Positions 1 through 727 of a stretch of 5,073 nucleotides of DNA are shown one piece after another; within the stretch, counting starts at the first letter, position 1, and each line of letters opens with the position of its first letter. The translations under genes and the position numbers were made by a program. This DNA is from a virus (taxonomy: Duplodnaviria; Heunggongvirae; Uroviricota; Caudoviricetes). Where the stretch lies: the IMG/VR virus record IMGVR_UViG_2713896783_000030; one strand, 5' to 3'. The notes beneath the pieces are model-generated. The model was not told the DNA's origin. It saw only the letters and a program-made list of their open reading frames with translations, and did not search any database.

Positions 1-727
1 CGAACAATATCCCGGTGCTTGTTCAGCTCCCGCAGCGCGGCGCAGACTCGCTCCCACTTCTGAACATCACTTTTCGCCCTGCGCAGCGCCAGGTTTGCCC
101 TGCGAAGGGACGGAAAAATCAGCTCATCTGCTTGCGTTTCGGTAAACGATGGCAACGGCTGCACAATGTCCGCCACAGTTTCTGTTTTAATTTCTTCCTG
201 TGTTGCGGCTTCCCGGACTGGTAACGCAGCACCTGCTGGCTGAGGAAAGGCCTTACCATCACTTTCCGTTACCAGCGCGGCTTTCGGCTCTGCTGGTAAA
301 TTATCGCCCGGCATGCAGTAACGAAATTTACCGTTCTGATTAACGCGTGCCAGCCGCCCCGTTGCGGTTACCACCGCCAGCGTGGAAGCAACCTTGCGAG
401 TACTGACGCCGAACTTACCCGCCAGTTCCTCACACGTTTTAGCACCATCCTGACCGATAAACTCAACCATCATGTCTGCGGTAACTTTTGGAGCGACCTC
501 TTCGGTTACCACATCCGGCGCTTCAGGTTGTAGTGCCTGCCCTTCGGTTACCCCGGCTTCACCTTCGACAGCCAGAAACCAGGTGTGACCCGTTTTATCA
601 ACAACGCCATTTTTTTGAGTTCCCACAGTTCGTTAAGAACTTCTTCACGGCTGATATCAAGCCGCGCCGCCAGTTCAACAGAATTGGCTTTTCCCATCGC
701 TTTCAGTGCATGCAATACAGTTTCCAT
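1..727 (-). pseudogene. Winged-helix DNA-binding protein gene, 3' end beyond window start, interrupted by a frameshift at an A7 run (plus-strand T7 at 608-614)
   Basis: Minus-strand ATG at 727 with GAGG about 10 nt upstream, 25 bp after the DnaC-like stop. Frame A gives [39 protein letters not shown] then junk and TAA at 550-548 (59 aa). A second minus frame is open from 632 to position 1 (about 210 codons) and continues the wing of the fold ([18 protein letters not shown]...). One extra A in the run would fuse the two frames. Confidence 0.6.

Follow-up and report, generated by a model that had tools for sequence, protein, structure and literature searches.

YdaW of the Rac prophage of Escherichia coli K-12 belongs to the DUF1627 or "YdaW" family, and phage records label homologues of the gene analyzed here as "putative YdaW family protein". 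YdaW has been described as a prophage gene among the transcription factors of unknown function, and its length differs between strains (PMC9308461). It is likened to our gene by record labels and by this description. The family is common in the lambdoid prophages of pathogenic E. coli, and its function is not known; our search of the literature on DUF1627, YdaW, and ECs2274 returned passing mentions and no functional study. The family member considered here resides in prophage Sp12 of E. coli O157:H7. Sp12 is described as defective; it has a disrupted integrase and a disrupted repressor, does not excise, and is not packaged (PMC2669165). In CP-933P, the equivalent of Sp12 in strain EDL933, ydaS/ydaT and paaR2-paaA2-parE2 face each other in a published bistable immunity region (PMC8630535).

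The gene is interrupted by a frameshift at a run of adenines, and two frameshift sites studied in E. coli serve for comparison. The slippery sequence of dnaX (A-AAA-AAG) is likewise a run of lysine codons that is read by the shift-prone tRNA-Lys, and its programmed −1 shift is accompanied by an upstream Shine–Dalgarno-like element and a downstream stem–loop and is conserved. The attB1 site of pDEST17 contains the heptamer C-AAA-AAA within TAC AAA AAA GCA, where a −1 shift rescued 1-nt deletions at 25–60% in E. coli; the shift was established by protein sequencing, and no A insertions were detected in the mRNA (PMC1851650). This figure was obtained under T7 overexpression, and single-tRNA slips at A-AAA are quoted at 0.3–1% in the same study (PMC1851650). 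In addition, suppression of frameshifts by slippage that is not programmed can be measured at A-rich heptamers in E. coli (PMC10861913).

Here, we analyzed a 5,073-nucleotide stretch of viral DNA (hereafter referred to as the window) that contains a DUF1627 gene split into two reading frames. The explanation that best accounts for the locus as a whole is that this gene very probably carries a genuine, inherited A8-to-A7 deletion, which is characteristic of Sp12/CP-933P in typical O157:H7. In the following sections, we describe the locus and its relatives and weigh this reading against sequencing error, a functional split gene, and leaky decoding.

Relationship of the window to prophage Sp12/CP-933P

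Over its full length, the window shares 99.7% identity with Sp12 of the E. coli O157:H7 strain Sakai (NC_002695.2, 2245353–2250457), with complete identity at window positions 311–2724 and 2775–4728, and it matches CP-933P of EDL933 likewise. By its sequence, the window is assigned to the immunity and replication region of this cryptic lambdoid prophage. Its minus strand encodes, among others, an O-like initiator (1500–2477), a YdaT-like gene, and a YdaS/Cro-like gene (2874–3176), while the three-gene toxin–antitoxin module paaR2-paaA2-parE2 (3274–4137) is located on the plus strand, such that the ydaS/ydaT operon diverges from the toxin–antitoxin genes.

The contig contains an N gap, which an earlier note on this DNA had mentioned and which we located at 2725–2774, within the YdaT-like gene. 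Its 50 Ns take the place of 83 nt in Sakai, which shows that the gap is a placeholder of arbitrary size and that the YdaT-like gene is not really interrupted.

Differences between the window and Sakai Sp12 are confined to both ends, whereas the central ~4.4 kb are identical. The left end carries eight substitutions, at 104 and 261–310, and the right end carries six substitutions and one extra base at 4729–4954. The left-end patch exactly matches a DUF1627 paralogue that is intact and located in a different prophage of typical O157:H7 (TR01, 1.176 Mb). These end clusters suggest either inter-prophage gene conversion or a short-read consensus that drifted into paralogous repeats at the scaffold ends.

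Two overlapping reading frames meet at an A7 run

The gene located directly upstream of the split gene encodes a DnaC-like helicase loader of 246 amino acids (753–1493, minus strand; Pfam IstB_IS21, E = 1.5e-19; PHROG 50, E = 1e-81). Its stop codon (753–755) is separated by 25 nt from the ATG at position 727. Because this distance is so short, the split gene can be placed in the rightward operon of the DnaC-like gene. Reading the sequence also revealed a Shine–Dalgarno-like GAGG motif (738–741, minus strand) 10 nt upstream of the same ATG.

The ORF list confirmed that the upstream frame extends from ATG 727 to a TAA stop codon at 550–548 (548–727, minus strand), as the earlier note had described. 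The encoded 59-aa product is identical to UniProt entry Q8X456_ECO57 and consists of 39 native residues, which comprise helices 1–3 of a winged helix, followed by 20 out-of-frame residues. A second frame, shifted by −1 (1–635, minus strand), is open from approximately position 635 and runs off the window at position 1; its ~211 codons agree with the previous estimate of about 210. Based on the Pfam match, the coordinates of the Sakai locus, and an AlphaFold model, this frame encodes residues 40–242 of a 256-aa DUF1627 protein. It thus supplies the wing belonging to the first winged helix, the second winged-helix-like domain, and the larger part of the long C-terminal helix, while the last 14 codons and the stop codon of the gene fall beyond window position 1.

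The two frames overlap across positions 548–635. A regular-expression scan identified an A7 tract in this overlap (610–616, minus strand; T7 on the plus strand), which is its sole long homopolymer; the tract had previously been placed at 608–614, two bases away from its actual position. The run is preceded by CTC and occupies codons 38 and 39 (AAA AAA) together with the first base of codon 40. The zero-frame context is CTC AAA AAA ATG, which yields the heptamer C-AAA-AAA. Compared with the A8 run of intact alleles, the tract is the site of a 1-nt deletion. Insertion of one A into the run produces an unbroken frame of 242 codons up to the end of the window, and orthologues with an undisrupted gene carry A8 and encode ...ELKKNGVV..., so that the earlier proposal of a single ORF restored by one extra A was correct. 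In our alignment of alleles, the A8 form was represented by 20AR0300, LSU61, DEC5A, and PV15-279, and the A7 form by EDL933 and Sakai.

Both frames belong to one DUF1627 protein

Profile searches assigned the two frames to the same protein family. The repaired translation matched Pfam DUF1627 (PF07789) over residues 91–242 with 320.4 bits (cut-off 28.1; E = 2.2e-96), and the intact allele matched PHROG 630 over residues 1–252 of the 253-position profile (E = 1.6e-131). A search of a collection of 5.8 billion proteins returned 2,240 clusters of homologues at E ≤ 1e-5, and among the 120 matches listed all named sources were E. coli. The homologues are single ORFs, which among the proteins retrieved usually comprise 253–256 aa, with 253 and 256 being the commonest lengths. 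The two-frame architecture is accordingly not conserved, as homologues at this locus consist of one ORF. The window allele departs from this single-ORF form of ~253–256 aa, in which an N-terminal HTH precedes DUF1627, in that it is split at codon 39/40. Because the split occurs where homologues are single ORFs, the locus is best described as a disrupted DUF1627 member, that is, a pseudogene allele. Two unrelated genes were considered as a separate candidate and are ruled out by the Pfam and PHROG matches and by the more than 2,000 clusters of typically single-ORF homologues.

A side observation concerns the databases themselves. The PHROG 16668 profile has 59 positions, and the Pfam DUF1627 family begins only at residue 91; some database families may have been built from split fragments.

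The N-terminal part of the protein resembles a winged helix. HTH_11 (PF08279) aligned to residues 3–52 of the repaired protein with 24.3 bits, which is below the cut-off of 25 (E = 2.9e-5), and PF08279 appears in the precomputed Pfam lists of many close homologues. In the AlphaFold2 model of a 98%-identical homologue, this region contains helices at residues 4–11, 16–23, and 27–39 and strands at 13–15, 43–46, and 49–52 (pLDDT 80–87), which corresponds to the H1-S1-H2-H3-S2-S3 topology of a winged helix. Foldseek comparison with the PDB aligned ~50 residues at 0.9–2 Å rmsd, with all E-values above 1e-3, and the matches were solely winged-helix domains, namely those of Z-alpha, the IclR N-terminus, Csa3, FeoC, and the SelB winged-helix tandem. 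The rest of the model shows a second winged-helix-like unit (84–137, lower confidence), disordered linkers, and a long helix (197–255). The overall mean pLDDT is 57.5 with low confidence in the middle and linker regions, and the full-length model therefore gives no function. According to the model, the break immediately follows recognition helix H3, and the second frame encodes the wing strands (43–46 and 49–52). The AlphaFold model and the Pfam and PHROG matches thereby uphold the earlier view that the two frames form one winged-helix fold.

The position of the break also bears on a functional split gene, in which the 59-aa peptide and a separately initiated C-terminal protein, starting at GTG 626 (624–626, minus strand) or at ATG ATG (~472–467), would act as two subunits. 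A downstream ORF of 222, 184, or 171 aa does appear in annotations and gene calls; the GTG is the start of the 222-aa ECs_2274 in the Sakai annotation and is also called in other O157 genomes. Furthermore, Pfam DUF1627 and PHROG 11856 cover just the C-terminal ~155–160 residues, which could possibly form an independent module. However, the break separates helix 3 from the wing and thereby cuts through one compact winged-helix domain instead of falling at a domain boundary, and a two-gene arrangement is seen in no intact homologue. Moreover, re-initiation at GTG 626 or at ATG ATG would have to proceed from a start that is not preceded by a well-spaced Shine–Dalgarno motif; in the sequence before GTG 626, the nearest candidate, GAAGAAG, ends 13 nt upstream. 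We therefore give a functional split gene very little credence and retain the disruption of one gene as the preferred reading.

Distribution and annotation of the A7 allele

The A7 allele is present in EDL933, Z1323HEC0494, and PNUSAE151637, in which PGAP/RefSeq annotates a "DUF1627 domain-containing protein, frameshifted". It is also present in Sakai, in which ECs_2274 represents the downstream frame. The RefSeq pseudogene (e.g., EDL933_RS12290) corresponds to the same locus and the same A7 allele as the window, within a prophage that is 99.7% identical, and differs from it in that the window has the eight substitutions in the 3′ part (104 and 261–310) that match an O157 paralogue.

To determine how widely the allele is distributed, we searched complete E. 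coli genomes, 679 of which (of 5,426) hold this neighborhood. The exact A7 66-mer was found in 287 of the 5,426 genomes, and all serotype-labeled genomes among the matches listed were O157 or O157:H7. The exact A8 67-mer was found in a further 207 of the genomes with this neighborhood, and every sampled inexact match spans 67 nt, which is the A8 length. An exact-sequence look-up placed the 59-aa product on at least 1000 contigs, and 1580 index blocks contain it. Judged by these matches, the frameshift is real and is found across hundreds of finished genomes; its annotation as a pseudogene predates this analysis.

These data also address the possibility that the A7 run is a homopolymer sequencing or assembly error in a draft contig, which would mean that the true sequence is A8 and the gene intact. 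The contig is indeed a draft with a 50-N gap, and at both ends it has variants matching paralogues from other prophages, which indicates that the consensus is not fully trustworthy. Against an error, the initial 417 nt of the gene, with the run among them, do not differ from the Sakai/EDL933 A7 allele, the A7 66-mer and the 59-aa product recur in the numbers given above, and A7 is what is expected of Sp12 in a typical O157:H7 strain. Given the 287 complete genomes and the identity to Sakai and EDL933, an error in the contig is extremely unlikely, and the sequencing artifact that the earlier note had offered as one cause did not hold up. Its second suggestion, a genuine pseudogene in a decaying prophage, is supported by the frameshifted RefSeq annotation and by the defective state of Sp12 (PMC2669165).

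Ancestral state and history of the deletion

The intact form of the run is found on the same local haplotype. An exact search with a 96-mer that combines the local Sp12 haplotype with A8 identified 155 genomes, including strains of O26:H11, O103:H2, and O45:H2, the O55:H7 strains DEC5B/E, and the O157:H7 strains LSU61, F3113, and PV15-279; O145 strains also carry A8. Among the matches listed (60 of the 155 exact A8 matches), LSU61, F3113, and PV15-279 are the only O157:H7 strains with A8 in this prophage, and rare A8 revertants are possible beyond these 60. In all three strains, the DUF1627 gene is intact (WP_000450876.1, 256 aa), and the neighboring O-like, DnaC-like, DUF977, and YdaT genes have WP_ accessions identical to those of EDL933. 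WP_000450876.1 thus represents the allele of the same prophage with the same neighboring proteins, in which A8 yields a single ORF, in atypical or ancestral O157:H7 lineages. A single A is the only difference between the LSU61 gene and the Sakai/EDL933 gene.

The literature treats these strains as atypical or ancestral. Typical O157:H7 (CC A6) is believed to descend from the beta-glucuronidase-positive lineage CC A5, of which PV15-279 is a member (PMC6256406). LSU61 has been called ancestral, and F3113 and PV15-279 group together on a tree of pO157 (PMC10758439). The simplest history, as we infer it from the sequences, is a single A8-to-A7 origin on the branch to typical O157:H7. The deletion would date from a single event that followed the separation of typical O157:H7 from its beta-glucuronidase-positive and ancestral O157:H7 relatives, with clonal inheritance since then. 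Frequent on/off switching of the run length, which would characterize a phase-variable tract, was not observed among close relatives in the matches listed.

In mechanistic terms, translation would lose its frame beyond Lys39, exactly where the recognition helix ends. Decoded in the ordinary way, the gene would then yield a 59-aa wingless fragment and leave the remaining 217 codons untranslated, unless translation restarts or slips. Based on the sequence, DUF1627 function is probably lost or strongly reduced in the A7 allele, and the frameshift would represent one more lesion in a prophage in which the integrase and repressor are already disrupted. Apart from the missing A, the downstream frame has no further lesion in Sakai, EDL933, or the window, which would be expected of a young clone and also fits retained function.

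Several individual genomes showed variations at this locus that are worth recording separately. Locus L015 (4001–4780; GCA_047262265.1, JBHFKQ010000001.1) has A7 and the same 59-aa product, but its local haplotype is another one: synonymous changes lie 4 and 19 nt before the run, and the C-terminal half, the DnaC-like gene, and the cI/Cro/CII-type immunity region are strongly diverged. This locus, from a single-contig assembly of 4.99 Mb, is a point against a single origin; its A7 run may have arisen independently from A8 or may be a homopolymer error of the assembly. In the assembly GCA_051590825.1, the O-like gene is split into 150 and 128 aa, paaR2 is represented by 72 aa and DUF551 by 122 aa, and the DUF1627 gene has an extra 1-nt deletion in a G-run. 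This pattern looks like assembly homopolymer errors and not biology, which calls for caution in censuses of draft data. Finally, locus L005 (3407–5022; NZ_CP140519.1, strain PNUSAE151637, O157-type) contains an IS3-family element that has entered the prophage's ydaS/Cro-like gene, so that the decay of Sp12 has gone one step further in this strain.

Decoding across the A7 run

The remaining alternative, in line with the third cause in the earlier note (expression through slippage), is that the A7 allele is leaky, such that unprogrammed −1 slippage of tRNA-Lys on C-AAA-AAA, addition of an A by RNA polymerase, or both would produce some full-length DUF1627 protein, and the allele would behave like a gene with lowered output. 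A −1 shift at any point of the run, or one added A, would recreate the wild-type sequence ...LKKNGVV.... The pDEST17 attB1 site provides the closest precedent, as it shares the heptamer, the frame, and the host species with our run and its −1 shift rescues a 1-nt deletion. It differs in its setting: pDEST17 was measured under T7 overexpression and with GCA as the next codon, whereas in the window the next codon is ATG and natural expression would be at the level of a repressed prophage operon. Since C-AAA-AAA shifts in E. coli and a −1 slip recreates the wild-type protein, the A7 allele is perhaps leaky rather than null, and on this analysis it is plausible that some full-length protein is made.

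When compared with the canonical motif X_XXY_YYZ, C_AAA_AAA is non-canonical, as the A-site tRNA re-pairs perfectly but the P-site tRNA at only two of three positions, yet it is shifty in experiments in E. coli (PMC1851650). Other features of the site argue against leaky decoding. Folding of 141 nt that span the run and its downstream side (window 500–640, minus strand) predicted no stimulatory structure: The native sequence reached −41.4 kcal/mol compared with a shuffle mean of −38.1 kcal/mol (z = −0.86), and 41 of 200 shuffled sequences folded at least as well. Upstream, direct reading of the sequence for a Shine–Dalgarno-like element revealed just a weak GGGA that ends 4 nt before the run. 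The run is also not conserved in the family. Among 144 retrieved proteins, 86 have KKNG at this site, 31 have KRNG, with one additional KRNGLV variant, five have KENG, and three have KRKG; the KKNG homologues have A8, while the runs are interrupted at KRNG, KENG, KRKG, and KING sites. KING is the reading of a paralogue in the same kind of genome, with AAAATAAAT.

Neither the conservation of the run nor the folding of downstream RNA therefore gave any sign of a programmed −1 shift, and the stimulatory elements and conservation of the dnaX type were not found in the fold prediction and the homologue comparison. As for transcriptional slippage, A7 is shorter than the runs of ~9 or more on which E. 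coli RNA polymerase slips efficiently. In addition, every intact relative is a plain single ORF, so that nothing suggests selection on the shift, and the high rescue rates of pDEST17 were obtained under overexpression. The rates quoted for single-tRNA slips are low. Leaky decoding is accordingly an unlikely explanation of the locus, and we favor the inherited deletion. An extended version, in which −1 slippage would deliver a set fraction of wild-type DUF1627 together with the 59-aa wingless HTH peptide, and one or both products could modulate intact paralogues from other lambdoid prophages in the cell, is more speculative still and appears decidedly improbable.

Genomic context, paralogues, and uses of the allele

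The DUF1627 gene adjoins the O-like and DnaC-like replication genes and is located directly downstream of them. Phage lambda carries ren directly after its replication genes. The second winged-helix unit of the DUF1627 protein (residues 85–137; window ~316–474, minus strand) showed a weak match to phrog_142, "Ren-like exclusion protein" (E = 4.6e-6), with no stretch that passed alone, and it also weakly matched the MarR-family regulator phrog_1687. We regard the putative link to Ren-like proteins as a lead only.

TR01, a typical O157:H7 genome with the A7 allele, has at least one intact DUF1627 paralogue in a different prophage, and the loss of DUF1627 in Sp12 may therefore be buffered.

The frameshift is a feature that is already known, as it is annotated in public genomes, and its significance hardly extends past annotation. 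It enlarges the defect catalog of Sp12/CP-933P by one lesion and provides a stable marker that separates typical O157:H7 from beta-glucuronidase-positive and ancestral O157:H7. As a natural null or hypomorphic allele that exists beside isogenic intact ones (LSU61 and PV15-279), it could serve as a ready-made comparison for this family, and with its C-AAA-AAA context it lends itself as a natural example on which unprogrammed frameshift suppression could conveniently be tested.

A comparable run occurs elsewhere in the window. The paaR2 gene opens with ATG CAA AAA AAA, in which an A8 run (3278–3285) follows right after the start codon; the run is in frame here and constitutes another potential indel hot spot.
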